DNA of 64,000 nt from a candidate division WOR-3 bacterium (GTDB taxonomy: Bacteria; Hydrothermota; Tepidihabitantia; SM23-42), in NCBI GenBank assembly GCA_027026255.1, contig JALVOT010000008.1, positions 11,619 to 75,618 on the forward strand. Reading direction: 5' to 3'. The position numbers and the translations under genes were made by a program. A model generated the notes under the pieces. That model did no database searches and had not been told where the DNA came from. It saw nothing but the letters and a program-made list of their open reading frames with translations. Below, in pieces: positions 18,276-50,884 of the stretch (positions are counted from its first letter, which is position 1; the number at the start of each line of letters is the position of its first letter).

Positions 18276-18337
18276 GTTTAACGGGGGGGGCAAAACACCT
18301 GAACGAGTTGCAAATATTGTATTGCCCGCTGTTATCT
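18276..18337 (-). repeat. attC-like imperfect inverted repeat (62 nt)
   Basis: Minus strand reads AGATAAC-A-GCGGGCAA-28 nt-TTGCCCCCCCC-GTTAAAC. It overlaps the stop codon of the methyltransferase ORF. Confidence 0.4.
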
Positions 18338-19246
18338 TTTCCTTAAAGTAATCCACAAAGTTTTAACTCCTAAGTCTTCAAATGAGTAATTGGTTTTAAA
18401 TCTATCGGCCAATCGTAGTCGCTTTAAGATTTCTATATCTGTATGACCTGGCTTTTTTACTTTTTGCTCGACAATCTCGAATCCTGATTGTTTTATTACA
18501 CTGATATAGTCTGGATAACGCAGTCTATTCTGAAAATGGATAGAGGAATTAAGCACTGACCATGTTTTTTCAGAAAATGTGAGGAAATTATAGCAGGAAA
18601 TGTTTTTATCAAAATATGAGTAATGGTCTTTTAAATCAATTAAGCAACTCACAATGCCTTTTGGTTTAAGAATTCTGTAGCATTCTTTGAGTATCTTTAT
18701 GATATCATTTTCGGGTATATGTTCAAGGGTTGCAGTACTTGAGATGAAATGAAACGATTCTGATGAAAAGGGTGTGTTCCGGGCATCTATTGGAGCAAGC
18801 CAGCGAATACCGAATATTTTAAATAATTCTGAGACATCCTTAATTTTTACTGAATTCACTCGAATCCGGTTATCTATAAGTGATTCTACTTTTGATTTAT
18901 GCTTTGATAATCTCGATATACTATCATTTACTAACTCAAGGCGTAAGTTCTGTCGAATGTCAATGAGTGTCTGATGTTCGACGCCAAAACAATAGTAGGC
19001 AAGGGGAATGATTAAATCCCAGCCTGCTCCGAATTCATAGAATTGAGCATCAGTGAGCCTTATACCCGAACAATATTGGGGAAAATTATTGAAATGTCTC
19101 TTTGCAATTTCAACCTTTCCTAAGAAACGTTTATTACTGATAGGAAGATTTTTTGTGATATTCCGCTGAAAAAAGTAGTTCCAGGTTTCGCTCCCTGGAA
19201 GATGACTGAAAATCTGTTGTAAAACCGCTTTAGCAATAAATTTCAC
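18332..19246 (-). CDS. class I SAM-dependent methyltransferase
   Basis: 304-aa ORF with EFGAGWD (motif I-like) and LKPKGIV. GTG start. Confidence 0.7.
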   Translation of the reverse strand: MKFIAKAVLQQIFSHLPGSETWNYFFQRNITKNLPISNKRFLGKVEIAKRHFNNFPQYCSGIRLTDAQFYEFGAGWDLIIPLAYYCFGVEHQTLIDIRQNLRLELVNDSISRLSKHKSKVESLIDNRIRVNSVKIKDVSELFKIFGIRWLAPIDARNTPFSSESFHFISSTATLEHIPENDIIKILKECYRILKPKGIVSCLIDLKDHYSYFDKNISCYNFLTFSEKTWSVLNSSIHFQNRLRYPDYISVIKQSGFEIVEQKVKKPGHTDIEILKRLRLADRFKTNYSFEDLGVKTLWITLRKR

Positions 19247-19333
19247 TTGCTATTCTTTCAATAACAGTATTTATATTTATTCAATCAACTCTCATTTATC
19301 TGTCTTACAAGCACTTTGGGTAATGCTCGGCGG

Positions 19334-19439
19334 CTATGAGTAATGGCGGGATTTTCCGCACTCACTTTCATTTTTGCGTTGCCGTTTGTTTTATTCATAT
19401 TTATTCCAGTATTAACACTTTGCCCGCCGTTACTCATAG
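19334..19439 (+). repeat. structured repeat, copy A (17-bp closing stem, ~70-nt AU-rich interior); homologous to 50430-50533
   Basis: CTATGAGTAATGGCGGG ... CCCGCCGTTACTCATAG. The single non-Watson-Crick pair is G.U only on this strand. About 75% identity to the reverse complement of copy B. Confidence 0.6.
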
Positions 19440-19458
19440 CCTTTGTTGGCGGTAGTAA

Positions 19459-20427
19459 TTATAATTTTACTATTTCAACTCGTCTGTTTTTTGCTCTTCC
19501 TTCATCTGTAGAATTTGTAGCTACAGGTGCTGCTTGTCCGACACCGTACGCTTTTAACTGTTCAGCTTTTACAGAATATTTTGATATCAATTCATTTACA
19601 ACAGCTTGTGCTCTTTCCATTGATAATTTAATATTAGCATCAAAGTCGCCTGTGTTGTCTGTATGTCCTACAATGACAAATTTCTTGTCAGGATGATTTT
19701 TGAGATAGCCTGCTATTACCTTGAGAGTTTCATCTGATTCCGGTTTAATATCTGCTTTACCCGGATCAAAAAGAATACTGTAGATTGAGATATGACCATA
19801 AGTAGCTAAGTTTTCGTCAATATTATGAGCATTTAAAATATCTTCCCTATCGGCTTCCATAACATCCTGTGTAATAAGTGTCTTGTCAGAAAATCCTGAT
19901 ATGTAGATGACTGTATAAATGTTTTTTTCTGCACCCGGTTTGCGGGCGACTATGAAACAATGTGTGTCTTCACCGCGTGGATAATATTCAAGCCCAAACT
20001 GTCCGGTCATTTTGTTACCATAGTAATAGTTGCAAAAATCTTCTGAATTACAACCAATGCCATCGATACCTTTGCCTTTGACTAAGATTGTGAAACCGTT
20101 TTTCTTTAGATTGTCAAGTAAAGTTTTATATAAATAAGCAGGATTATTTTCGGCCGGGGTTGTGTACTGATATCTAATCAACCTACCTTCTGTCTTAAGC
20201 ATGTGAGGAAAATACCTGCCTCTGTCTTCCTTGTATGTGAGCTTGGTCAGAGGAACATTATATTCCTGCCATTTAAAGACTTTGTAGAATTTAAGGTCAG
20301 AGCCTGGGAAACGTTGGATTAAAGGATAGTCCTTAGAGCCTTTTACATCATTATTTTGTGCAAAAAGATTTGTGGAAAACATTAATGCAACTACTGCTAA
20401 AATTAAAGTTACTTTTTTCATTTTCAA
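19459..20427 (-). CDS. OmpA-family protein (C-terminal OmpA/peptidoglycan-binding domain)
   Basis: Signal peptide present. C-terminus reads GHTDNTGDFDANIKLSMERAQAV...GRAKNRRVEIV. Confidence 0.85.
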   Translation of the reverse strand: MKMKKVTLILAVVALMFSTNLFAQNNDVKGSKDYPLIQRFPGSDLKFYKVFKWQEYNVPLTKLTYKEDRGRYFPHMLKTEGRLIRYQYTTPAENNPAYLYKTLLDNLKKNGFTILVKGKGIDGIGCNSEDFCNYYYGNKMTGQFGLEYYPRGEDTHCFIVARKPGAEKNIYTVIYISGFSDKTLITQDVMEADREDILNAHNIDENLATYGHISIYSILFDPGKADIKPESDETLKVIAGYLKNHPDKKFVIVGHTDNTGDFDANIKLSMERAQAVVNELISKYSVKAEQLKAYGVGQAAPVATNSTDEGRAKNRRVEIVKL

Positions 20428-20465
20428 ATCTCCTTTTATTTAATGTTTATTTTCGGTTTTATTAC

Positions 20466-20547
20466 CACCAACCTTTTGCGTATTTGCGAAGTACCGTAGG
20501 CATTTAAGTGAGTACCAAAGGGGCGAACTGCAAACACGCTGTTAGAC
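20466..20547 (-). repeat. attC-like imperfect inverted repeat (82 nt)
   Basis: Minus strand reads GTCTAAC-A-GCGTGTTTGC...GCAAATACGC-AAAAG-GTTGGTG. It starts 24 nt after the stop of the 75-aa ORF. Confidence 0.4.
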
Positions 20548-20571
20548 AATAGTAGGGACACTTATTTTTCA

Positions 20572-20799
20572 CTATTTGTCCCAGGTCATTTTGATCTTAC
20601 TAATTTGAGTTTCGCCTCCGAGGACATTCCCTTCATTATCAATTCTTATTTTGTCAATGCCGCCGATCTCTTTTCTGAAATCAGTTATGATGTCCCGGTG
20701 AGGTTCTTCTACCCAATTATCAAAATCATTGGGAATCTTCAAACCATCCTTGAAACCTTTTAGATAGTCGTCAATAGCTATGATTTCACCTCCTTTCAT
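20572..20799 (-). CDS. hypothetical 75-aa protein (partner of the nucleotidyltransferase; not HEPN-like)
   Basis: ORF 49 nt downstream of the NTase gene. No Rx4H motif. Confidence 0.45.
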   Translation of the reverse strand: MKGGEIIAIDDYLKGFKDGLKIPNDFDNWVEEPHRDIITDFRKEIGGIDKIRIDNEGNVLGGETQISKIKMTWDK

Positions 20800-20848
20800 T
20801 TATTTTTCCATCCAGTCTGGCAGATATTTATCCACCAGGCTCTTGAAG

Positions 20849-21157
20849 TTAAATGTTTCGTTTTTTTTGTAGAATAACCTTTTGTTCGTTCAGTATTCGT
20901 TTTTTAAGTAGAGGATGAATAGATTTATAAGTAATAATATCCACTTCCCTTCCCAACAGTTTTTGAAGCTTTAACTTCATACCCATAAGGTCTAATAGAC
21001 TTTTTCTCCCTTCAAATTCAATTAGCAAGTCTATATCGCTATCTTTGGTGACTTCTCCTCTTACTATCGAGCCCAAAAGAGCAGTTCTTTTCACCCTGTA
21101 TTTCTTTAATACTTTAATAAGTGTATCTTTTATTTCTTTAATCTGCTCGCTATTCAT
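20849..21157 (-). CDS. MNT-type nucleotidyltransferase-domain protein (antitoxin-like)
   Basis: LLGSIVRGEVTKDSDIDLLIEF matches the GS...DxD minimal NTase motif. Confidence 0.8.
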   Translation of the reverse strand: MNSEQIKEIKDTLIKVLKKYRVKRTALLGSIVRGEVTKDSDIDLLIEFEGRKSLLDLMGMKLKLQKLLGREVDIITYKSIHPLLKKRILNEQKVILQKKRNI

Positions 21158-21186
21158 ATTTTTTAGCTTCCAGGGCAGGGTTCGGG

Positions 21187-21365
21187 ATTTCGGACAACTC
21201 GTTCATATCCGTAATATTACGAATATACATCCCTCTGGGTGAAATTATACTCCTTTCTTCTTTATCAACCATTATAGAATAAATATATAGCAAAAAAACA
21301 AAAAGTCAAGACCATTTTCAGAAAGTTCTCTTTGGAGGTCTTAAAAAAAGTTGCCGAAGGCGATT
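21187..21365 (-). repeat. junction repeat copy 1 (terminator hairpin + promoter module + L-motif)
   Basis: Minus strand carries AATCGCCTTCGGCAAC-T7, AAGACCTCCAAAGAGAACTTTCTGA, TTGACT-16-TATATT and the L-motif with hairpin 21205-21226. Homologous to 22921-23028 and 24478-24682. Confidence 0.7.
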
Positions 21366-21407
21366 GGGGTGAGCGAACCAGATGCCCGCTTGTTGTTTTA
21401 TGCACGG

Positions 21408-22541
21408 TTAGGATAAAACCTTAAAATATACTATAAAACCATATATGATTCCTTCGGTTAAAAGAAAGTAAGGGATGGAATATTGGTGGAAACTTAACCA
21501 TAATTTTTTATTTTTTGCTATTCTTAAGGCAATAATATTTGCTAATGAGGAGATTATTAAACCATTTCCACCAACATTTACCCCATATGTTATTACCTGC
21601 CAATTGTGCGTAAATTTCGAGATAAGCACAGTTGCTGGAACATTACTAACTACTTGAGATGTGAATACTGATACCAAAAATACATTATTTGCAGAGTTTA
21701 AATTTAGCGCATTAATAGTTTTTGATACTATTGATGCAGTGGAAATAATATGAAAATCAATGAAAATAATTATAAAAAGTAACAATAATGCCCAATCTAC
21801 TTTCGCCAATACTTTGCTGTTATATATAATATAAATTGTAAAAATAACTGGTAATATCCAGATGGCTAATCTCAACTCTAAAAAGATAATATAAACTAAT
21901 AGCATTGCTGTAGATAAAATTAACAGTGGTTTTTTGAATGCCTTACTGTTACTTATATCTTCTGAAACTTTTATCTTTTTGTCAGAGAAAACAATCCAGG
22001 CAAATATTAAAAGAATTAAAAGAAGAAAAATAACTAATGGGAACATCTTTATGATAAATGTAATAAAAGAGATATTCCATTTGTGCCATAAAAATATATT
22101 TTGTGGGTTGCCAATTGGTGTTAAGGAAGAGCCTATATTAACAGAAATGGTTTCAAAAATTATTAACTTAGAAATGTCATTTTCTATTATGTTTTGAATC
22201 CCGATGGTTAATGGAATAACTACAAAAAGCGTGATGTCATTTGTAAGAAATGTGGACAGTAATGCTGAAAAGATTATTAAAAAAAATGAAAGAGATTTTT
22301 CGGTTCCCATTTTTTTTATTATTTTTTCAGACAGGGTATCAAAAAACTTACTTTCTTTTAGTCCCGTGGTAATTATAAGCAATCCTGTAAGTGCTATTAT
22401 TGTTCTCCAATCAATAAAGTAAGGATAATTGATTATTTGATGATGGTATACAATAGATAAAATAATAAGTAAGATAACGAATATAGATAAAATAAATTCT
22501 TTTTTTACAATCTTAATTATCCCCATTTTATACACAATCAC
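21408..22541 (-). CDS. ArsB/NhaD/CitMHS-superfamily anion or cation permease
   Basis: 377-aa polytopic ORF with the IGNPQNI motif. Confidence 0.7.
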   Translation of the reverse strand: MIVYKMGIIKIVKKEFILSIFVILLIILSIVYHHQIINYPYFIDWRTIIALTGLLIITTGLKESKFFDTLSEKIIKKMGTEKSLSFFLIIFSALLSTFLTNDITLFVVIPLTIGIQNIIENDISKLIIFETISVNIGSSLTPIGNPQNIFLWHKWNISFITFIIKMFPLVIFLLLILLIFAWIVFSDKKIKVSEDISNSKAFKKPLLILSTAMLLVYIIFLELRLAIWILPVIFTIYIIYNSKVLAKVDWALLLLFIIIFIDFHIISTASIVSKTINALNLNSANNVFLVSVFTSQVVSNVPATVLISKFTHNWQVITYGVNVGGNGLIISSLANIIALRIAKNKKLWLSFHQYSIPYFLLTEGIIYGFIVYFKVLS

Positions 22542-22920
22542 CTTTTATATAACATCTCGTGTGTATTTAAAGTTACTGAAGACAATTTGGGTGAGGATTG
22601 AATACCAGAACCAGATACCTGTTTGTTAAACGACAGCAGAGGTCTTTCATAGTATTATACGTTCCTTAATACTCATTTTTTGGTCGTAAATCCTAACCTA
22701 AAACTTTTGTGGGTGTCGTTAGTATCAAAATAGTTTTGGATTTTACTGGCTCCAGTTCCTCCGATTTTTATCAGAATAGTCAAATAAAACTCTTGAGATC
22801 CTGCTTGATGGGCAAAGTGAATCTTATTTTGGAATCCTTTCACCTTCCACCTGGCTCTATCTTTTACTTCCTTTATTCATTAAGTGGATACACCTTGCTC
22901 TAAGCGAAAACATATTTTTT

Positions 22921-23028
22921 CCTCCTTTATCAAGCATTATGCAATAATATAATAGCAAAAAAACAAAAAGTCAAGTCCGTTCAGAAAGTTCTCTTTGGAG
23001 GTCTTAAAAGAAGTCGCCGAAGGCGATT
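22921..23028 (-). repeat. junction repeat copy 2 (terminator hairpin + promoter module)
   Basis: Minus strand carries AAATCGCCTTCGGCGACTTCTTTT, then TTGACT (22974-22969), 17 nt, TATATT (22951-22946), then GATAAAGGAGGAA. Confidence 0.7.
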
Positions 23029-23097
23029 TAGAAAAATCTTTTCTGCCTGTCGGCAGACAGGGATTTCCCTTTTATCCGCTGTTAGGTGAGGTCGCTT

Positions 23098-23406
23098 TCA
23101 ACTTTTCACCACTTGTATACCCATTATCTTAACGCCATCTGTTGTTCTCATCGATAATGTTGTAGGTTCGGTAATTAGACACTGTCCCTCTTTAAGATTC
23201 ACTATTTCTTGATTAGCCCTTACTTCTGCTGTCCCTTTAATAACATAGAAAATAACATAAGAAGTCATTTCGCAAGTTGGCATCTCACCACCGGCCGGAA
23301 GCTCAATAATTCTTAGTTTAAATTCCTTAGCTTTATAGAAAACATTCTTATCCCGTTCCTCATACGGATATACTGCCATTGTTTTGATATCAAAAACTTG
23401 CATCAT
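23098..23406 (-). CDS. cupin-domain protein
   Basis: About 102 aa counted from ATG 23406, which is preceded by AGGAGGTGAAG. Small beta-barrel-like sequence. The track start at 23445 overlaps the upstream gene more extensively. Confidence 0.6.
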   Translation of the reverse strand: MMQVFDIKTMAVYPYEERDKNVFYKAKEFKLRIIELPAGGEMPTCEMTSYVIFYVIKGTAEVRANQEIVNLKEGQCLITEPTTLSMRTTDGVKIMGIQVVKS

Positions 23407-23959
23407 CTTCACCTCCTGAGACTTGTTTTTTACAGCTCCATTCAATTAGTTGTTCTATAGATACTCCCATTATTATAACAAAAACAATTGTTAAAATAAG
23501 TCTTGCTGCCATAAATTTTGGCCCAAGGAATTGAAGTTCCACCATCTCTTGAGGGATTTTTATGCATGCCCAGGCAGAAAGGAAAACAATGATACAGGAT
23601 ATTTTGGCGCCTTTTTTAAGTAAAGTAGAAGCTATAGGAAAAGCCACATATAGAGGGCCTGTAGGCAGTGACCCCAACAATATTCCGAGAAAAACGCTCT
23701 TTATTCCAGCAGCTTTTCCCAGATATTTTACAACCATATTCTTAGGCATAAATACCGCAAAAAGTCCCATCAATACCAGAACAGCAGGGAGTATTGAAAT
23801 CATTTCAATAAAGAATTTCAATGATGTATTAGTTACTGCTTTTTGTTTGTCAGGAAAAATTGAGAGTAAAATTACTGTAATAAATAAAGTGAGTCCAAGA
23901 ATGATTACATCTCGTTTCATTTCCTTTCTTTGAGTTTCTTTTTCTACAGGTTCTTTCAT
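23390..23959 (-). CDS. permease, C-terminal half of a split UPF0718/ArsP-like permease
   Basis: 189-aa polytopic ORF with a 4-nt overlap with the upstream half. Confidence 0.55.
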   Translation of the reverse strand: MKEPVEKETQRKEMKRDVIILGLTLFITVILLSIFPDKQKAVTNTSLKFFIEMISILPAVLVLMGLFAVFMPKNMVVKYLGKAAGIKSVFLGILLGSLPTGPLYVAFPIASTLLKKGAKISCIIVFLSAWACIKIPQEMVELQFLGPKFMAARLILTIVFVIIMGVSIEQLIEWSCKKQVSGGEDDASF

Positions 23960-24438
23960 AGTATCACTCCCATGATGATGCCAATAATAATTGCAATTAC
24001 AAAACTTATTCCATTTCTGAGTAAAGCTATTTTCTTTCCCAATTCTTTTATTTCTAAAGGTAGTGTAACTATACCAATCATAGTTAAGGTAGTAATAAAT
24101 ACTGCAACCGAGGTAACTGATGTCCCGTTTTTGAGGAGAGATGCTGCTAACGGAAAGGAAATTAAAGAAGGGATATGCAAGAATGCTCCCAATGATGCTA
24201 CAATAAGCACTCCTCCAAAACCTGCCTGCTCACCAATGAGTTTAGAAATCTGACCTTGCGGTACGAAACCTAAAAGCAGTCCTATAAAGATTATAATAAT
24301 AAGAACAGTGGGAAAAATACGAAAGAATGACTTTAATGCTCCGGTTAATGCCTGTTTTGTTTTTGTTCGTTCCTTAATAAACGCAAATATTAAACAGCCA
24401 AAAGCAAAGACATTTATAAGTATGGCAGTTGTATTCAT
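23956..24438 (-). CDS. permease, N-terminal half of a split UPF0718/ArsP-like permease
   Basis: 160-aa polytopic ORF. AAGGAGG RBS. Confidence 0.55.
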   Translation of the reverse strand: MNTTAILINVFAFGCLIFAFIKERTKTKQALTGALKSFFRIFPTVLIIIIFIGLLLGFVPQGQISKLIGEQAGFGGVLIVASLGAFLHIPSLISFPLAASLLKNGTSVTSVAVFITTLTMIGIVTLPLEIKELGKKIALLRNGISFVIAIIIGIIMGVIL

Positions 24439-24477
24439 GGAATATTCCTCCTTACATTTGAACTCATATATCTATCA

Positions 24478-24682
24478 ATGTCGCCTAACTCCTTCATATA
24501 CGAACAGTTCGCATATCCCTGTCTGTGTGTGGGTACGCACAGGCAGACATCCTTCTGGGTGAAATCATACTCCTTCCTCCTTTATCAAGCATTATGTAAT
24601 AATATAATAGCAAAAAGACAAAAAGTCAAGTCCGTTCAGAAAGTTCTCTTTGGAGGTCTTAAAAGAGTTTCCTGAGGTGATT
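24478..24682 (-). repeat. junction repeat copy 3 (promoter module + L-motif carrying a 30-nt hairpin insertion)
   Basis: Same module as copies 1 and 2. The L-motif ends in GAGTTAGGCGACAT (GTTAGGC is the complement of 24483-24489), 44 nt before the permease ATG. Confidence 0.7.
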
Positions 24683-24741
24683 TGGGTAAGGGCTGAAACT
24701 TCGAATTAGATACATCGTGTTATGCGATATGCTGATTTTTT

Positions 24742-25095
24742 TTATTTTCTTCGTGGTCTGAGAAGACCGCCAAAAATTCCACCTACCAGACCAAGAAATC
24801 CAAAGTAGAGTGTAGAGATAAAGACACCGCCGCCAATTACTGCACCCAGGATTCCTCCTAAAGCTGCGCCCTGAAAACCACCAAGAATATTCCCTAAGAA
24901 ACCGCCAATAGTTGTGAAAATAATGCCTGCAAAAATTCCATCGATTGTTCCGCTCAAAAATCCAGCTAATATACCTCTTCCTATTCCACCGGCAATTAAA
25001 CCAGCGGTAAAACCAGCAATGATGGGGCCGAGTATCGGGATAGGACTCAATACTGCCATTGCAATGGCCCCGATAATAACCCCTAAAACTAACAT
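24742..25095 (-). CDS. glycine-rich small membrane protein
   Basis: 117-aa ORF built from GxxxG-type repeats and hydrophobic segments. Confidence 0.6.
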   Translation of the reverse strand: MLVLGVIIGAIAMAVLSPIPILGPIIAGFTAGLIAGGIGRGILAGFLSGTIDGIFAGIIFTTIGGFLGNILGGFQGAALGGILGAVIGGGVFISTLYFGFLGLVGGIFGGLLRPRRK

Positions 25096-25877
25096 AATGA
25101 CCTCATTTTTTCAGGCATTTCGCCTAACGGTTTAGCAAACTTTGGTTGCCACACGAAGTATCCATCTTGATAGATTAATCTTTGATTGCTGTCCGGGGAT
25201 TCTCTGAATCGCAATGTGTCCGGATTACCGTGGACGGAAAAATACTTCATAGCAGATTGCTGTTTTTGGCCCCTGAAATCATCTATCCGACCCCTTTTCA
25301 TTGTTGTGTTCTCTGTTTCAGGGCGCCAGTTATTATTCCATAAGAAATATAAGCAGCCGTCCTCGTCGGTATTGATTTCTCCATCCTAATCAACACAGGC
25401 AAAATATAAAGCACAAAAGATTGAGGATGTAATATCTATCATTTTTGTCCCAACCTCATCATCATAATGTGCCATCAAAGACCACCAATTAGGGTCTTCT
25501 TTCTTTTTTCTTGTTTGAAAAAGCCATTTAATCTTTGAATTTATGTATTTCTTCTGAAATGCCTTAAGGTATTCTATTTCGTCCGAAGTTATATTTAGTG
25601 GATTAATATCGTTATGCTTCAATCCGGTATTTCGTACAATTCTTGGTATTAGTTCCCAACCATAGATATGTTCTCCCCGAAAAAATATTGGTTTTACGCT
25701 TGAGCCTTCATTCATGAAACTTTTAATACCGGAAGTTTTTAATAATACCTCTCCACATGAACTTATATAGCAATTACCATTACACCCTGTCGATAGTTGC
25801 TTATCATCACGGGTCAGTTGCCGCCAAGAAACGCAGCGAATTGGCGGCAACTGACCATATTGTTCAGGTTTTTTCAT
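25089..25877 (-). pseudogene. FRG-domain protein gene interrupted by one in-frame TAG (25386-25388)
   Basis: FFRGEHIYGWELIPRIVR and WWSLMAHY...IDITSSIFCALYFA are FRG-like. The same frame stays open after the TAG for 98 more codons, down to 25092. Confidence 0.6.
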
Positions 25878-26020
25878 TATAGTATTCCATAAACATCTTT
25901 GTCAGTGGATTGTGAGCTTTTGTCAGAGAGGTACCAAATAATCCCCAAAATTTCTCTGACCGCGTTTTTTTTAGGGAAAAACTCATCAGGTTTTTGAATC
26001 ATCTCTTTGTCTTTTCTCAT
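25877..26020 (-). CDS. hypothetical 47-aa ORF
   Basis: Below the track size cutoff. ATG 26020; its TAA overlaps the FRG ATG (TAATG). Confidence 0.3.
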   Translation of the reverse strand: MRKDKEMIQKPDEFFPKKNAVREILGIIWYLSDKSSQSTDKDVYGIL

Positions 26021-26074
26021 TAGCGGAAGACAGGCTTCTATTATTCCCTCTTGTCAGGACCTGTCTTTATTTCA

Positions 26075-26599
26075 TTACTCTTTTCTTTTTTTACTCTTCT
26101 CTTGCACAAGTCTTTTGATTTCATCCAGATGCCCAAGTTCGAATTCTTTTTTCGGTTTCGGTATCTGTTCCAGTACGGCATTTATTGCTTCTTCCGCTTG
26201 CTTTGCCGTCCGTGGATTTATCGCTTTCTGCTTAACTAAATCCTGAATGGCCTGTACATAGATGTATCCGCATCTATGGGCGCTTGGATTAAAGAGTTTT
26301 ACACAAGTTGTTTGGTCACAACATGCTTGAACTATAGCTGCATCCGTAAAGTGATTGGCGTGGTAAACAAACCCTGGCTTAACGATCCAGAACGACCATA
26401 CTGCTTTTAGGTAATAACAGCCAGGGGGAACTTCAACTTCAAGGTGACCACATTTGGCAGGTAAAACTACGTACTTCTTACCGCACCACTGGAGTACATT
26501 ACCATCGCAGTCATAGATGGTAACATACCATGTCCTTTTATCAACACTACAGGGATCGTCAATCCCTGAAATCCAGATGTTAAGTTTTGCCATTCCCAT
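26075..26599 (-). CDS. Cys-rich hypothetical protein (12 Cys in the first ~125 aa, Lys/Glu-rich tail)
   Basis: 174-aa ORF with a GGAGG RBS. No recognisable family. Confidence 0.6.
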   Translation of the reverse strand: MGMAKLNIWISGIDDPCSVDKRTWYVTIYDCDGNVLQWCGKKYVVLPAKCGHLEVEVPPGCYYLKAVWSFWIVKPGFVYHANHFTDAAIVQACCDQTTCVKLFNPSAHRCGYIYVQAIQDLVKQKAINPRTAKQAEEAINAVLEQIPKPKKEFELGHLDEIKRLVQEKSKKRKE

Positions 26600-28686: not shown

Positions 28687-30651
28687 TTAATAGACAAAAT
28701 ATATCTGGCCGAATATTCTCCGTCCGGGCATCGGATAGTTTCTATCTTTTATTGAATTGCCGAATTGCGTGGCATATTCTTTATTAAAGAGGTTCTTCAC
28801 GCCTACGGATAATTCCCATACCTTTAAGAATTTTTTTCCTGCGGTGATATCCACAATGTAGTATGGATTCAGGGTCTTCGTATCCATCTTTATTCTGGGA
28901 TAATCTTCATAATTGGGATAGTAATTAACCTGTTCACCCACATACGAACCGATGATGTTGAGATTCCACTGATGCCGGAACTTAAAATATAATTTTGTTG
29001 AAAATTTATATTTCGGAATAAACCCTGCGGTTCTTGTTTTCGTTTCAAACTCAATATGGGATGTATCTGCAAGCCAGTCATAATATGAATAGACCAGTTC
29101 TCTGTTTTCCTGTTGGGCAAGAAGGTATGTTCCTTCTAATGCAACTTTTAAAAACCAGCTGACCCGGGTATTAATCCGGGCTTCAATCCCTTTGATATTA
29201 ACGTAGTCGACATTTTGCGGTTTCCACAGTCCATTATTATCAGGCAGCCAGGCAATCTTATCATTTATATTGCGCATAAATATTGCCAGACTTGTAAAAA
29301 GATTATACCGGGGTGAAATCTCAGCCCTCAGTTCATATGCCTCGCCATATTCAGGTTTGATATCTGGATTTCCACCGGTTGGATAGTAGAGGTCATTGAA
29401 TGTCGGTGCCCGGAATGCCCGGCCTGCTGAACCCTTTAAAAAACACCTTTCGGTCAATTGATAGACAATGCCCAGTTGAGGTGAAATGAAGTTGCCATAA
29501 CCAGAATTCTGATCCAGGCGTAGAGAAGAATGGACCTTTATAAAATCTATCGGTTCAATCCTGGTTTCAATCCAGTATCCGATATTATGATATGCCGCAT
29601 CCCAGACCGATTTTCCAAAAAGGCTCGATTCTGTAATGCTGTTCAGACTGTCGTATCTGAAATCAAATCCGCTGATAACCTTAAACTGATTTAGATTATA
29701 ACCGGTTGAGAAGTTTATGCCTGCGGTTCGAACATCCCATTGATATTCTTCTTCAACCGGAGCGGCCCAGAAGTATTTTGTATGATATTTAATACGATAG
29801 AGATTGCCGTATATTTTCAGGTCAAGGTTGATTCGGCTACCGGGCACAAAGCTGATATCCAGATTGCTCAAGGCTATGCGGTCTCTCTGACGGTCATAAA
29901 GTGAAGTCGATTGGGAATCGCCAAAAACCGGAGGGGGTGTAATACTATCGATATAGGGCATCGGTCCAGGAACACCATGGTCCCTTAAATTAAGGCTGAA
30001 ATCCAGGTTTGTCTTAAACCTCTTTTTATTATAACTTAATCCATTTTTCAGATAGTAACCAGAGAAATCACTGTTTGACCGGATACCCTGGGCCTTAGAT
30101 TTTGTCTGTTCCAAGTAATAACCAAAATTGCCGGCGGGAACAAAAAATTTTAAGAAGTAGTTCTGTTGATTGGGAAAGGCAGTTATTTTTAGCTGAGAGT
30201 TTTTTTGATAATCAAATTCATCAGTGATGATGTTAATCACACCACCTAAGGCATTTGCTCCGTAGAGTGCAGAACAGGGACCTTTGACAATCTCAATCCT
30301 TTTTATGGAGTTGATATCAATCATACTCAAGTCCGCCATTCCAAAGAGCATCGAATTCAGGGGCTGACCATTTAAAAGAACCAATGTGCCATTGGATGAT
30401 ATGCCCCTGATGCATAGACTGCCAACACCACCAGGGGTTCCATAATCCTTTATTTCGACCCCAGCGGCATACTGGAGAATTTCGGTCAAAGAAGCAGGTT
30501 TTATTTTCTCAATTTCATCCTTTGTTATTACCAGGGTCGCAGTAGCGATATCCTGCAGTTTCTCAGGATATCTTGTTGCCGTAACCACAATACCTTCAAC
30601 CTCGTAGATCGGTTGTTGGGTAATGAGTTGAATGGTTAATAATAAAATCAT
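28687..30651 (-). CDS. btuB: TonB-dependent receptor, cobalamin-type (BtuB-like)
   Basis: 654-aa ORF with a plug domain, beta-barrel, and C-terminal aromatic residue. It follows a cobalamin riboswitch. Confidence 0.85.
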   Translation of the reverse strand: MILLLTIQLITQQPIYEVEGIVVTATRYPEKLQDIATATLVITKDEIEKIKPASLTEILQYAAGVEIKDYGTPGGVGSLCIRGISSNGTLVLLNGQPLNSMLFGMADLSMIDINSIKRIEIVKGPCSALYGANALGGVINIITDEFDYQKNSQLKITAFPNQQNYFLKFFVPAGNFGYYLEQTKSKAQGIRSNSDFSGYYLKNGLSYNKKRFKTNLDFSLNLRDHGVPGPMPYIDSITPPPVFGDSQSTSLYDRQRDRIALSNLDISFVPGSRINLDLKIYGNLYRIKYHTKYFWAAPVEEEYQWDVRTAGINFSTGYNLNQFKVISGFDFRYDSLNSITESSLFGKSVWDAAYHNIGYWIETRIEPIDFIKVHSSLRLDQNSGYGNFISPQLGIVYQLTERCFLKGSAGRAFRAPTFNDLYYPTGGNPDIKPEYGEAYELRAEISPRYNLFTSLAIFMRNINDKIAWLPDNNGLWKPQNVDYVNIKGIEARINTRVSWFLKVALEGTYLLAQQENRELVYSYYDWLADTSHIEFETKTRTAGFIPKYKFSTKLYFKFRHQWNLNIIGSYVGEQVNYYPNYEDYPRIKMDTKTLNPYYIVDITAGKKFLKVWELSVGVKNLFNKEYATQFGNSIKDRNYPMPGRRIFGQIYFVY

Positions 30652-30666: not shown

Positions 30667-30840
30667 CCGAAGGATTTCTTCGGTAGACCGGGGATAGGTC
30701 TCCTGGCTTATCCACCCTTAATCAACCTTCCCATTCTGTCTTGTAGAACAGTGGTTTTCTATGATTAAGGTATCTACTGGAATCACAGTGGCGGCGACCG
30801 CGGCCGATTTTCACGGCGCTTCCCTTGAATCCACCAGCCG
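30667..30840 (-). promoter_or_regulatory. cobalamin (B12) riboswitch
   Basis: Minus strand carries GGTGGATTCAAGGGAAGCGCCGTGAAAATCGGCCGCGGTCGCCGCCACTGT, GGGAAGG, and the B12 box AAGCCAGGAGACC. Confidence 0.85.
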
Positions 30841-30844
30841 ATAG

Positions 30845-30872
30845 ATTATATTCAGATAATAATAACTGTCAA
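30845..30872 (-). promoter_or_regulatory. sigma70-type promoter of the riboswitch-btuB unit
   Basis: Minus strand reads TTGACA (30872-30867), 16 nt, TATAAT (30850-30845). Confidence 0.6.
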
Positions 30873-30882
30873 CCCATTCACC

Positions 30883-31069
30883 TGGGGTCAAATCTTCACA
30901 ATTCACAAACCTGTATAGGCGACATACCATTAACTCGTCAATCGTAATTGATATTGCTACTATACTGATAAAATATCTCGCAACAACGCCGTAATAACTC
31001 CATCATCAGAATACAATTTAAACTGGAATAAATCAAACATTAATTGTGAATTGTGAAGATTTGACCCCA
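30883..31069. repeat. 187-bp element with perfect 26-bp terminal inverted repeats (MITE or invertible segment)
   Basis: TGGGGTCAAATCTTCACAATTCACAA at 30883-30908 and its exact reverse complement at 31044-31069, with a 135-bp interior. Confidence 0.8.
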
Positions 31070-47183: not shown

Positions 47184-47498
47184 TTATGGTATCGGCGAGA
47201 CAGGGAATCGGTGAATTTATGATTAAAAAAGCCAGATAAAATTTTAAATTAATCATCCATCCCTTGACAAAGGGTGGCGGTTGAATATACTCTGGATATG
47301 GAGAGAGGAATACTGAACATTGGAGATTCAGGGTATAGCTTTGCTACTAAGTTTTTAAAATCAGGGATGGATTTAGGATATATTCAAGAACTATTGGCAT
47401 ACAAAAATTGCAGAACAACTGAGGTTTATACCTGTGTAAATAAAACAAATCTTGCAAAAATTGAGAATCCTCTTGATAGGCTGATGAAGGAGAAATGA
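47184..47498 (+). pseudogene. decayed tyrosine recombinase/integrase gene (C-terminal remnants only)
   Basis: One frame reads LWYRRDRESVNL*...*...*QRVAVEYTLDMERGILNIGDSGYSFATKFLKSGMDLGYIQELLAYKNCRTTEVYTCVNKTNLAKIENPLDRL. Compare the integrase motifs HSFAT..L..G.D...IQELLGH....TT.IYTHV....SPLD.L. It has three in-frame stops and altered catalytic H residues. Confidence 0.6.
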
Positions 47499-47559
47499 GT
47501 ATGATTTCACCCAGAAGTATCTATATCCGCATTGCGGATATAGATGAGTTAGGTGACAT
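47497..47559 (+). repeat. L-motif copy (homologous to 21187-21254 and 24478-24576)
   Basis: GAGTATGATTTCACCCAGAAG, an 11-bp perfect hairpin (47520-47544), then GATGAGTTAGGTGACAT. Homology to the other copies stops at 47559. Confidence 0.7.
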
Positions 47560-47609: not shown

Positions 47610-49751
47610 ATGGTTGATATAAAAGAAGGACTTACCCAAAAGCCAGTGATAAGTAGAATCCTTATTGATTTTTTCAAATCAAAAGAAGACTTTGATGGTA
47701 AACTATATATTGGCTATCCAATACTGTATAGTGGCGAAAATAGTATAGTGATCGATGCTTTATGGATTTCCAAGAAATATGGGATAATTATATTTGACTT
47801 AATTGAAAAAGAACAAGATTGTAATGATTATGCTAAAAGACAAGACCTTATATACTCACAATTAGATTCATTACTGCGGGCATATCCCGACTTAAAAAGA
47901 GGCAGAAAAGAACTTTTGGTAAACATAGAACTTTTAAGTTTTGCAAGCAATTTATGCAAAACAGATTTTGACAACTATATTGTTTCTTCAGAAGAGGATT
48001 TAAATAAGTATCTTGGACAAAAAGTACTAAATTGGGATAGTAGTTATTTGTTTGATAAGGTTTTATCTATAATTCAATCTGTTGTTAACTTAAAAAAGAA
48101 AACTAAAAGAAATATCATTAATCCAAATTCTAAGGGAGGTATATTAAAAAATAAATTAGAACCAACCATTGCTACTTTAGATAGAAATCAAGAAGAAGTG
48201 GTGATAAAATATTTTGATGGTGTACAAAGAATAAGGGGATTAGCAGGTTCTGGTAAAACAATTGTTTTGGCTTTAAAAGCGGCTTATTATCATTCTTTAT
48301 TTCCAGATTGGAATATTGCTGTGACATTTAACACACGTTCACTCAAAGATCAATTTAAAGATCTTATTACGCGATTTGTAGTAGACAAAAAACGTGAAAT
48401 GCCAGATTGGTCAAAAATAAGAGTCGTAAATGCGTGGGGGAGTCCCAAAGATAAAGAAGAAGAAAAAGGACTTTACTATGATTATTGTATTTCAAACAAT
48501 ATTGAATATTTTGATTTCAGAAAAGCAAAAAGTATTAATAAAAATAATCCTTTTAGAGTTGCTTGCAAAAATGCCTTAGAGAAATCACCTTCTCATATAA
48601 ATGAAAAATTTGATGCTATTTTGATTGATGAGGCTCAAGACTTATCTGTTGAATTTCTTCAAATTTGTTATAATTTTTTAAAAAAGCCAAAAAGATTAAT
48701 TTATGCTTATGATGAATTACAAAAGTTAAATGAAGGTGAAGCATTGCCAAATCCAACTAAATTTCTTCCGATTGAAGAAAATGATTATGATGATAGAATT
48801 TTAAAAATATGCTATCGTAATTCAAGACCTATATTAGTTACAGCACATGCATTAGGATTTGGTATTTATCGAGAACCCACTACAAGAGTAGATGGATTAA
48901 AAACTGGATTAGTCCAGTTTTTTGATCAACCCCGTTTATGGCAAGATGTTGGATATGAAAAAGAGGAAGGAGAATTTAAAGCTGGAGAAAGAATAGTACT
49001 TACAAGAACGGAAGAATCTAGCCCTAAATATCTAGAAGATCATTCGCCAATAAATGATTTATTAGTTTTTACACAGTTTAGAAATAAAAAAGAGCAAGCA
49101 GAATGGGTGGCAAATGAAATAGAAAAAAATCTAAAAGAAGAAGAACTCTCATATAAAGACATAATAGTTATTAACCCGATTGCCTTAACCACAAAAGAAG
49201 AAGTTGCTTTAATTAGAAATACTTTATTACAAAAAGGTATAAACAACCATATTGCAGGTGAATTTAATGCTGATATATTTTTCCAGGATAAGTCAATTGC
49301 ATTTACCGGAATAAATAGAGCGAAGGGAAATGAAGTTCCAATGGTATATATTATAAATGCACAAGATTGTTATTCATCATCTTTATTTAATGAACGCGAT
49401 TTGAGAAGACTGCGAAATATTTTATTTACTGCAATTACTAGAAGTAAAGCATGGGTTAGAGTTGTCGGAATAGGAAATAAAATGCAATCTCTTATTAATG
49501 AATTTAATAAGATAAAGAAAAATAATTTTAAACTTAACTTTATTTATCCATCAAAGGAAGAGATTGAAAGGATTAATATAATTCACAGGGATATTACAAA
49601 AGAAGAAGAAAGGAAACTAAAACGAGATGTAGATACTCTTAATAATTTAAAAGATATTGTAGAAAGTATTAAAAATGGTAAAACATTTATTGAAGATTAT
49701 CCAGTTGAAGTGCAAAAGATAATCAAGCTATTAATTGAAAAATTGGACTAG
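47610..49751 (+). CDS. NERD-like N-terminal domain fused to an SF1 (UvrD/DUF2075-like) helicase/ATPase
   Basis: 713-aa ORF with GYPILYSGENSIVIDALWISKKYGIIIFDLIEK, then Walker A GLAGSGKT, Walker B ILIDEAQD, CYRNSRPIL and LFTAITRSKAWVRVVG. Confidence 0.8.
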   Translation: MVDIKEGLTQKPVISRILIDFFKSKEDFDGKLYIGYPILYSGENSIVIDALWISKKYGIIIFDLIEKEQDCNDYAKRQDLIYSQLDSLLRAYPDLKRGRKELLVNIELLSFASNLCKTDFDNYIVSSEEDLNKYLGQKVLNWDSSYLFDKVLSIIQSVVNLKKKTKRNIINPNSKGGILKNKLEPTIATLDRNQEEVVIKYFDGVQRIRGLAGSGKTIVLALKAAYYHSLFPDWNIAVTFNTRSLKDQFKDLITRFVVDKKREMPDWSKIRVVNAWGSPKDKEEEKGLYYDYCISNNIEYFDFRKAKSINKNNPFRVACKNALEKSPSHINEKFDAILIDEAQDLSVEFLQICYNFLKKPKRLIYAYDELQKLNEGEALPNPTKFLPIEENDYDDRILKICYRNSRPILVTAHALGFGIYREPTTRVDGLKTGLVQFFDQPRLWQDVGYEKEEGEFKAGERIVLTRTEESSPKYLEDHSPINDLLVFTQFRNKKEQAEWVANEIEKNLKEEELSYKDIIVINPIALTTKEEVALIRNTLLQKGINNHIAGEFNADIFFQDKSIAFTGINRAKGNEVPMVYIINAQDCYSSSLFNERDLRRLRNILFTAITRSKAWVRVVGIGNKMQSLINEFNKIKKNNFKLNFIYPSKEEIERINIIHRDITKEEERKLKRDVDTLNNLKDIVESIKNGKTFIEDYPVEVQKIIKLLIEKLD

Positions 49752-49752
49752 T

Positions 49753-50409
49753 ATGAGTATTAAATCTGAAATACTAAGAGAAATAAGAAGTATTACAACA
49801 TCTTTAGTTGAGAAAAGTATAATTATCGACCAAAATTGGCCTAGTGAAAAAAATGGTGAAATTGTATGGGATAATTATAAAGGACTCGCTTTTTCTTTAC
49901 AAAATGAACCTTATGAAACAATTTTTGATCAATGCAGAAAAGAAAGAGATTTTAACTTTATGCTCATTGACGGAAGTCTAATTCAATTACAATATCGCAT
50001 TAAGGGGAATAATTTAATAGAACATATTTTACGATTCTTACCAAATCCTTCATTCGAAAAATATCAGGATAATCCGGAAGAGTTTGAAGAATTATATTAT
50101 GGTATTGAATTGTTTACAAATATATTAGATAAAAAAACTATTGTTTTCCCAATACGATTTGACTTCTCAAATATTCATAAAGAAATATTGCATCCGAAAG
50201 TCCACGCAACTTTTGGTAATTATAAAGATTGTAGGATTCCAATTTCAAAACCTATAAGCCCCAAAAGATTTGTTTCATTTATATTAAGAAATTTTTACAA
50301 CTACAAATTTATAGATTCTGGTATAGAAAGTCAGTTAATTTCCAGCATCGTATTTGAAGAAGATATTGCAGATAATGAAAAGAAATTGATACATCTTGCA
50401 TATGATTAA
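49753..50409 (+). CDS. hypothetical 218-aa partner protein (size and position fit DUF2290; unverified)
   Basis: ATG 49753 lies 1 nt after the helicase TAG. No motif I can name. Confidence 0.6.
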   Translation: MSIKSEILREIRSITTSLVEKSIIIDQNWPSEKNGEIVWDNYKGLAFSLQNEPYETIFDQCRKERDFNFMLIDGSLIQLQYRIKGNNLIEHILRFLPNPSFEKYQDNPEEFEELYYGIELFTNILDKKTIVFPIRFDFSNIHKEILHPKVHATFGNYKDCRIPISKPISPKRFVSFILRNFYNYKFIDSGIESQLISSIVFEEDIADNEKKLIHLAYD

Positions 50410-50429
50410 AGCACAAACGCCCGATATTG

Positions 50430-50533
50430 TGTATGAGTAATGGCAGGCAAAGTATCAAAAATAAAACATATGTGAATAAAATAAACAGTAGTGCAAAAAT
50501 GAAGGTAAGTGCGGAACCCGCCACTACTCATAC
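50430..50533 (-). repeat. structured repeat, copy B (homologous to 19334-19439)
   Basis: GTATGAGTAATGGCAGG...CCCGCCACTACTCATAC. The two non-Watson-Crick pairs are G.U only on the minus strand. It lies 20 nt after the stop of the upstream ORF. Confidence 0.6.
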
Positions 50534-50884
50534 ACTTGCCCGTTGCACAAAATCGCAATTGAATAGAGAAAATTTCGTTTTTTAATTTTAGAATTGAAAA
50601 ATCGATTACTACATATAAAATTTGTCTATTTGATGATTGATGCGAAATGGATGTTTTTCACAAAATCGAATGGGGTTTCAAATCTGAGCACCAGACAAAC
50701 CAGATAAAACGCTTCGCGGTACAAAACGCGCTAAAGCGCTGTACTTAACACAGAGAAGCGGTGTAATGAATCAGAAAATTCTGCTTTCGCCTTTCCGTGT
50801 TTTCTTTGCGGCCTTTGCAGATTTTTTACGGTCCTCTTTTGCATCTTTTGCGATAATTAAAACAACCCAGAAATCTGTTTATTA

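Follow-up and report, generated by a model that had tools for sequence, protein, structure and literature searches.

Integrons are the textbook system of gene capture. Their attI site is thought to be recombined as plain duplex, while the folded attC sites are handled by an extra domain of the integrase; attI1 carries direct-repeat integrase-binding sites. Accessory sites are also known from other tyrosine recombinases, examples being the arm sites of lambda attP and the TnpI recombination site of Tn4430 (IRS), which consists of IR1-IR2 plus DR1-DR2. Two putative archaeal attI sites, immediately downstream of intI, were described by Ghaly et al. 2022 (PMC9668308). The Delta-attI-type gene cassettes of mobile integrons concern class 1 sites and the canonical IntI1 (PMC12901181).

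The window analysed here is a stretch of 64,000 nt from the genome of a candidate division WOR-3 bacterium, obtained from a hydrothermal-vent metagenome; relatives of this genome include contigs labelled Candidatus Stahlbacteria. It contains three copies of a structured element, the L-motif. On comparative sequence evidence the L-motif is probably, with a probability of about 0.8, a fossil attI-type site of a non-canonical integron-like platform.

The closest known sites are the attI sites of integrons with a co-oriented integrase (the 'inverted' Treponema type) and the two putative archaeal attIs (PMC9668308), to which the L-motif is likened by position and function; the archaeal sequences were published as an image only. 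Like an integron attI, the L-motif separates the first cassette from a recombinase gene and has at its end a GTTRRRY core, to which attC cassettes are joined; an upstream promoter reads into the array. The enzyme is different: unlike IntI, the recombinase of the L-motif is without the IntI-specific additional domain and carries an extra, HARP-like domain at its N-terminus. The site also differs from attI1, having one to three covarying hairpin modules instead of direct repeats, and from the arrangement of a classical integron, since in this window an attI-type site occurs several times within one array.

With attC sites the L-motif shares an R' core box (of the GTTAGGCGAAAT type), stem-loops with variable tips and a CACCCA(A/G)A-like element reminiscent of the CACCCAAAT centre in attCs of the same family. 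However, it has no conserved helix closing R'' on R', and its hairpins are short, near-perfect and arranged in tandem, whereas an attC is one long imperfect palindrome with extrahelical bases. The order R''-L''...L'-R' with pairing ends was found not in the L-motif but in true attC sites, at other places of the array and in related loci.

An analogy may be drawn with lambda attP and the IRS of Tn4430, in which repeated elements flank the crossover core on a single side, are bound by the enzyme that acts at the core, and are read by its extra N-terminal domain. In the L-motif, by contrast, the elements are palindromes or hairpins with variable loops, and the domain is HARP-like and not of an arm-binding fold. 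We know of no accessory host factor for the L-motif platform. The Delta-attI cassettes likewise have attI remnants inside arrays where normal attC junctions would be expected (PMC12901181); the junctions of the window differ in that they join whole promoter/deleted recombinase/attI modules to attC left halves.

Three copies of the L-motif in the window

An earlier note, made from the letters of the window, had described the three copies as a structured leader ending in a conserved box. Copies were found at all three positions (Table 1): the window has exactly three instances of the 20-nt left element AGTATRATTTCACCCAGARG, where 100 shuffles gave an expectation of 0.00, and repeat finding aligned the plus-strand copy with both copies on the minus strand (82-90% identity over 39-51 nt). 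The layout is as described, namely a left box, a hairpin, GAxxGAGTT and a 12-nt box, and the partial 3' end, GTTAGGCGAAAT, is also present on the minus strand. The hairpin base ATATnCG/CGnATAT is kept in the copies while the tips vary and nevertheless pair, in agreement with the covariation of the whole family (see below). Homology between the copies ends abruptly, directly past the 12-nt box, and unrelated start codons follow 29, 39 and 50 nt past it, at 21157, 24438 and 47610.

Table 1. Positions of the L-motif copies and of associated features. Coordinates refer to the window unless a contig of the source genome (C4 to C18) is named.
Feature	Position	Strand	Remarks
L-motif copy 1	21187-21254	-	one weak hairpin; degenerate box GTTGTCCGAAAT at 21187-21198; 37.7 bits, E 3e-6
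L-motif copy 2	24478-24576	-	30-nt GC hairpin at the position of hairpin 1; box GTTAGGCGACAT at 24478-24489; 44.6 bits, E 9e-8
L-motif copy 3, attI-type	47497-47559	+	left box, 12-bp hairpin at 47519-47545, spacer, core box GTTAGGTGACAT at 47548-47559; 31.2 bits, E 9e-5
Promoter-like TTGACA-16-TATACT	47264-47291	+	just 5' of the recombinase relic; putative, read from the sequence
C-terminal relic (74 aa) of the cognate tyrosine recombinase	47274-47498	+	homologous part 47334-47495; stop codon abuts L-motif copy 3
Two-gene cassette	47610-50409	+	GC 28%; UvrD-like helicase 47610-49751, DUF2290 protein 49735-50409
attC-type site closing the helicase cassette	50411-50553	+	palindrome 50432-50516; core-type box GTTGCACAAAAT at 50542-50553
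Candidate inverse core GCACAAAC of this attC	50411-50418	+	by eye; not complementary to the start box of the cassette
Core box GTTAGGCGAAAT, start of the DUF5518 cassette	25117-25128	-	weak covariance-model match, E 0.83
Junction A, attC left half	24667-24730	-	inverse-core box ATATCGCATAAC at 24730-24719
Junction A, promoter segment D1	24554-24666	-	TTGACT-17-TATATT at 24629-24601
Junction B, degenerate L-motif	22870-23092	-	inverse core ACCTCACCTAAC at 23092-23081; GC hairpin 23062-23041; tetraloop hairpin 23026-23014
Junction B, D1 segment and promoter	23011-22899	-	promoter 22974-22946
Junction C, upstream part	21234-21418	-	inverse core TTTTATCCTAAC at 21418-21407; attC left half with CACCCCAAT centre
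Junction C, D1 segment and promoter	21346-21234	-	promoter 21309-21282
Distal attC-type palindrome, end of the minus-strand array	19340-19450	-	palindrome 19354-19438
L-motifs outside the window	C14:124672-124756, C4:135611-135698, C4:130040-130079, C8:250-326, C18:188537-188571, C6:68153-68188		profile search

Copies 1 and 2 have a further segment of about 113 nt upstream in common (D1), which holds a promoter-like TTGACT-16/17-TATATT and of which a third copy lies at 22899-23011. The 30-nt GC hairpin that had been reported as an insertion is indeed akin to the hairpin at 23041-23062: the arms CCCTGTCTG and CAGGCAGA are common to it (24519-24548) and the latter, and these two are the only ones in the genome. 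The copy that carries it is, however, copy 2 and not the plus-strand copy to which it had been assigned. Both GC hairpins sit within array junctions. At a locus of a same-genus relative (L039), a similar GC hairpin adjoins an L-motif.

The core reads GTTAGGY in copies 2 and 3, whereas copy 1 has a degenerate GTTGTCC, outside GTTRRRY. When folded as single-stranded DNA and compared with shuffled sequences, copy 3 gave z values of -6.5 (top strand) and -7.0 (bottom strand), copy 2 of -1.3 and -2.5, and copy 1 values near 0; better-than-shuffled folding was seen in copy 3 only. Copy 1 is degenerate, both in its box and in folding at the level of shuffled sequence, and this counts against the attI reading. 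A small conserved ORF spanning the L-motif (MNELGE...) was considered and rejected, because the differences in loop length are not multiples of 3 and the frame is lost in copy 2.

The site and its recombinase in other genomes

Relatives of the source genome carry the hairpin together with GAACGAGTTAGGCGAAAT. The exact box GTTAGGCGAAAT was no commoner in 60 relatives than a reversed control, indicating that arrays are small in this lineage. In a one-genome-per-species collection the 20-mer TATGAACGAGTTAGGYGAMA was found on 41 contigs, with about 38 true sites and three coding coincidences, from many archaeal and bacterial phyla. Every site had the same layout, in which a CCAGAG box precedes two or three tandem hairpins and a linker leads on to the box; the DNA beyond it is unrelated. 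A recombinase gene, or a relic of it truncated from the 5' side, was located directly upstream of 16 of these sites.

In order to avoid ascertainment bias on the 20-mer, loci were also sampled by homology to the recombinase. At least 550 relatives were found in one-genome-per-species contigs, again from many bacterial and archaeal phyla, and 80 loci were kept. Nearly all recombinase genes with available downstream sequence precede the same architecture, which is located about 100 nt past intact genes. It comprises a CCAGAG box, between one and three covarying hairpins, a spacer fixed at 6 nt and the GTTRRRY core, with stems that differ by lineage. A profile of the L-motif built from 28 sites matched directly 3' of the recombinase gene in 47 of the 61 testable loci, that is, those with at least 150 nt available downstream; the misses were the most distant recombinases, where the same layout could be recognized by eye. 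The adjacency of attI to its integrase gene has its counterpart here, in these loci with intact genes as well as in copy 3, which abuts a relic, and site and gene are co-directional as in the 'inverted' group. In Nitrospirota-type platforms (L102, L105, L110, L113, L118 and L128), GTTAGCCGCTCATTGCGGGCA is found repeatedly after the core and may be a common start of first cassettes or the unoccupied right side of the site.

A covariance model built from foreign loci only recovered the three copies of the window, with the scores given in Table 1, and beyond these nothing in the window at E below 0.1, the partial box lying above this limit. Profile searches added at least five or six copies from beyond the window; the 2.1-Mb genome holds at least nine in all. 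In front of the outside copies there is either a promoter, TTGAC(T/A)...TATAxx, or a recombinase relic, and behind them an unrelated gene. On contig C18 nothing separates the first recombinase codons from the last hairpin, to which they are fused; the relic modules elsewhere in the source genome represent independent deletions of the recombinase gene.

No intact cognate recombinase was found in the source genome, which has three C-terminal relics and two ordinary Xer-like genes. The 74-aa relic in front of copy 3 matches the tail of Pfam Phage_integrase and the last 50 positions of TIGR02249. In a relative of the same order, a full-length homologue of 370 aa ends about 110 nt before GAGTTAGGCGAAAT. 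The recombinase scored above the cut-off for NF040815 only (XerA type / integron integrase; 234 against a cut-off of 220); with TIGR02249 it reached 217 bits, in two pieces, below the cut-off of 265. The IntI insertion of VchIntIA (PDB 2A3V, residues 180-238) comprises 59 residues against 17 in the recombinase, and the alignment with XerA is continuous. Hence, the recombinase family is without the IntI-specific additional domain around patch III, and by this defining domain of the enzyme the L-motif platform falls outside the classical integron family. Because the domain is missing and the score is below the TIGR02249 cut-off, classical attC processing cannot be assumed.

The N-terminus of the recombinase has about 75 extra residues with a confidently predicted fold (pLDDT about 92). 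Pfam HARP (PF07443) was matched above cut-off in one member (27.8 bits), and a family profile of the domain matched the HARP domain of SMARCAL1 (PDB 4O66) with an E value of 0.0024. The same structure was the top Foldseek match (4o66; prob 0.95, E 0.057, TM 0.46-0.53). With moderate confidence, the N-terminal domain is predicted to be a HARP-like, structure-specific DNA-binding domain. A literature search retrieved no HARP-bearing recombinase of this kind and no hairpin-bearing attI, which does not prove that none has been described. The present analysis contributes the anatomy of the insertion site, a proposed multi-hairpin attI, together with its distribution, a test of the crossover position and the N-terminal domain.

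Hairpins and core box

Covariation of the hairpins was measured in two alignments of related sites from other genomes. It amounted to 0.242 in alignment A1 (0.104 when shuffled) and to 0.251 in alignment A3 (0.113 when shuffled), and none of 500 shuffles reached the score in either case. In A3, pairing was found in 74% of the cells for hairpin 1 and in 83% for hairpin 2; a hairpin 0 upstream of the CCAGAG box was only 47% paired and was hence dropped from the model. Covariation of this kind does not tell RNA from DNA.

The claim of the earlier note that the L-motif is a leader holds by position, since it is located between a sigma-70-like promoter and unrelated start codons; the claim that it folds as RNA on the sense strand was not borne out. 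A cis-acting RNA leader would be transcribed from the promoter, and its hairpin would regulate translation, stability or processing of the downstream mRNA. The arrangement suits this explanation, all three window copies lying between the promoter and a Shine-Dalgarno sequence with ATG, as do the covarying hairpins; constant non-hairpin spacing with variable loops is compatible with any folded strand, RNA included. Copies 1 and 2 do have G.T as their odd pair when the sense strand is considered, as had been argued, but the family as a whole shows no such bias: sense-strand G.T and A.C mismatches numbered 14 and 13 in A1, and 37 and 73 in A3. Across the family, no difference in folding energy was found between top and bottom strand, and copies 1 and 2 fold weakly. 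No copy matched Rfam, whether the search used the gathering threshold or permissive E limits of 1 and 5. Moreover, the downstream genes are unrelated, and the L-motif tracks the 3' end of the recombinase gene instead; it ends in a recombination core common to attC sites, and its hairpin arms evolve in concert. An RNA leader is thus very unlikely to be what the L-motif is, and transcribed RNA may have an added role.

The concerted evolution is seen in the arms of hairpins 1 and 2, which are 78% alike within a locus but only 64% when different loci are compared (p<0.0002). Such concerted change would be unnecessary for a purely structural RNA, and it suggests that one protein recognises the sequence of both hairpins. 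If the L-motif is an attI-type site, its hairpins could act as duplex palindromes or as extruded DNA hairpins, and both forms would fit the data. The segments outside the hairpins are near-invariant in length (12-13, 18-19 and 6 nt; sd 0.2-0.5 nt), whereas the hairpins range from 17 to 25 nt. From left box to core the distance along the duplex is 72-83 bp, and with the hairpins looped out it is 35-38 nt; this constancy despite variable hairpins favours extruded stem-loops over duplex. Most likely, therefore, the hairpins would be extruded as stem-loops and recognised by the HARP-like domain, a step suggested by the spacing of the aligned sites.

Two further ideas were discarded. A helix closing the left box on the R' box, predicted for copy 3, is not conserved across loci: pairing within a locus was no better than between loci (p=0.87). 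The interpretation of the hairpins as pseudo-core sites (GAAC...GTTC) holds in some lineages only.

Comparative genomics had been proposed as a check on whether the GTT box is a recombination junction, and the outcome was positive. In other loci the L-motif is followed by attC sites composed of R'' (TCGCCTAAC), L'', a CACCCAAAT centre, L' and AAC, then GTTAnnnGAAAT. Inverse cores, each 12 nt long, were compared at 12 attC sites for which the preceding box could be identified. They complemented the start box of their own cassette at a mean of 9.1 of 12 positions, against 6.9 of 12 for the following box; the start box was the better fit in nine of the 12 sites and the worse in one. In ORF-less mini-cassettes right after the site (L094, L146 and L154), the box is followed by 13 nt and then by its exact reverse complement, which starts an attC. 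Since the inverse core complements the start box of its own cassette, the GTT box is the junction and travels with the cassette, and homology between the L-motif copies ends past the box because the box moves with the cassette.

The complementarity in related loci suggests that the crossover falls at the 5' edge of the box. A GTTRRRY core, with the putative crossover G|TT, is present in copies 2 and 3. Within the window, the inverse core of the DUF5518 cassette fits its own start box at 10 of 12 positions and that of the permease cassette at 9 of 12, while the helicase cassette shows no fit: by eye, its attC is not complementary to the box of copy 3, which counts against the attI reading.

Intact relatives of the platform show the order promoter, recombinase gene, L-motif and cassettes, all in the same orientation, and their recombinase is of the Xer/IntI type, with a HARP-like N-terminal domain and no IntI-specific insertion. 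We propose that a circular cassette uses its folded attC to recombine with the core, the exchange falling at the 5' edge of the GTT box. With the crossover at this edge, the box (TTAGGYGAMAT) would belong to the first cassette, and all DNA 3' of the box would be captured. The hairpin modules would serve as accessory recognition elements for the recombinase, and the platform promoter would read through the L-motif into the cassette. Copy 3 retains the 74-aa relic of the enzyme; all that is left in copies 1 and 2 is the promoter with about 10 codons of the gene, joined to attC left halves. As the recombinase genes are gone or decayed, all three copies would be fossils, at most promoter-proximal leaders of cassettes.

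Cassette arrays and composite junctions

The minus-strand array extends from 25128 to about 19340. Its genes are unrelated to each other (DUF5518, a split ArsP-type permease and a cupin, a CitMHS transporter, a nucleotidyltransferase and an OmpA-family protein), with composite junctions between them. The palindromes at 50432-50516 and at 19354-19438(-), imperfect and about 100 nt long, are 79% alike, and a third similar one was found on contig C4. The C4 palindrome is flanked by ACCTAAC and GTTATAAGG, and that at 50432-50516 is followed by GTTGCACAAAAT; these flanks identify the palindromes as long attC-type sites.

The attC left half 5' of each module consists of inverse core, L'' and CACCCCAAT centre, and the join to the module falls about where an intact attC has its L' arm and R' box (compare locus L087). 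The D1 segment of the window junctions has homologues at four foreign loci, where it forms the native promoter region of an intact recombinase gene; this identifies copies 1 and 2 as modules of promoter, deleted recombinase and attI. The composite junctions could be due to insertion of a platform into attC, or to the homologous spread of one junction. The presence of several attI-type modules within one array, unlike the single attI of a classical integron, counts against the attI reading.

The same junctions bear on the possibility that promoter, recombinase and L-motif together are a mobile cassette, which circularises and inserts into attC sites; the L-motif would then be the element's own site and not a fixed chromosomal attI. 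Three window junctions join an attC left half to D1 at the place expected for the L' arm and R' box, followed by the relic and then the R' box, as such insertions would predict. An attC just 5' of the intact recombinase gene in L097 and L154, a second L-motif in L097 and L141, and the 50-70% identity between archaeal and bacterial recombinases of the family are also consistent with mobility. However, an attC-like centre within 400 nt upstream was found in only 2 of 35 intact loci, the left junction is without a recognisable GTT-type box, and the helix closing left box on R' box is not conserved, as described above. In addition, the three window junctions are paralogous, and ordinary homologous recombination may have spread them. 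We consider a mobile cassette of this kind highly improbable and retain the reading as a fossil attI-type site.

A wider proposal, possible but doubtful at present, extends this reading: there may exist, across Archaea and Bacteria, a second integron-type lineage that is independent of the additional domain of IntI. Its insertion site would be folded DNA, with tandem extruded hairpins at fixed spacing from the core, read by a HARP-like N-terminal domain that replaces the IntI domain, and the promoter-recombinase-attI unit could move into attC sites of existing arrays. Such movement would explain arrays with several attI modules.

The recombinase family is very large and cross-domain, and it is without the domain by which integrases handle folded attC, yet it is accompanied by attC-bounded cassettes, a hairpin-bearing site and a HARP-like domain. 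If the site works as proposed, it represents a different solution to structure-specific recombination, it bears on the origin of integrons from Xer-type enzymes, and it explains many arrays that are now filed as attC clusters without integrase. The L-motif profile marks the start of an array even after decay of the recombinase, as in this hydrothermal-vent genome.

The helicase/DUF2290 pair behind copy 3 matches PADLOC PDLC03002 (856 bits) and PDLC02999 (200 bits) over the full model length, and the cassette is a candidate anti-phage defence pair. Copy 3 is located near a tRNA-Gly gene, and the island adjoins the 5' end of the tRNA, not its 3' end. Nine relatives keep the tRNA-Gly flank, but neither the island nor any other cassette was seen within 0.8-1.5 kb in any of them, so that these nine offer no alternative occupant of the site; the contig of the same genus stops at the tRNA. 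That the L-motif is the end of another mobile element (attL/attR of an integrative island) or a Xer/dif-type site (as in difSL/XerS), followed by ordinary chromosome, is very improbable: the vicinity of the tRNA, the absence of the island beside the same tRNA in the nine relatives, the abrupt end of homology, and the Xer-like length of a recombinase that exceeds the cut-off only for the XerA-type NF040815 agree with it, but the position at the 5' end of the tRNA does not, nor do at least nine copies in the 2.1-Mb genome next to two ordinary Xer-like genes, a palindrome centre of 1-7 nt where a dif is a single site with two arms of about 11 bp and a fixed centre of 6-8 bp, and the attC-bounded cassettes that follow, with inverse cores complementing their own start box.

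Metagenome contigs from two DNA runs were compared over 18300-26300. One low-depth contig joins 21365 to 23062; the shorter side of this joint is only 23 nt long, and 13 foreign letters lie in between. Contig depth was 301 over 20337-21301 and 252 over 21740-22992, which hold the nucleotidyltransferase and CitMHS cassettes, against about 400-440 for the neighbours. The lower depth and the joint are a weak hint of cassette polymorphism, too weak for claiming cassette loss.

The ArsP-type permease at 23390-24438(-) is split into overlapping ORFs of 160 and 189 aa, both of which match the same first half of the Pfam model. The nucleotidyltransferase of the array (20849-21157(-)) matches PADLOC PDC-S09, and an FRG-domain protein just 5' of the array (25386-25877(-)) matches PADLOC PDC-S15.

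A cobalamin riboswitch (30680-30864(-), 75 bits) is located directly 5' of a TonB-dependent receptor gene (28687-30651), and a radical SAM/SPASM gene lies downstream of this region. The riboswitch is adjoined by a perfect 26-nt inverted repeat (30883-30908 and 31044-31069), whose arms are 135 nt apart and which may be an IS10-like miniature transposon.
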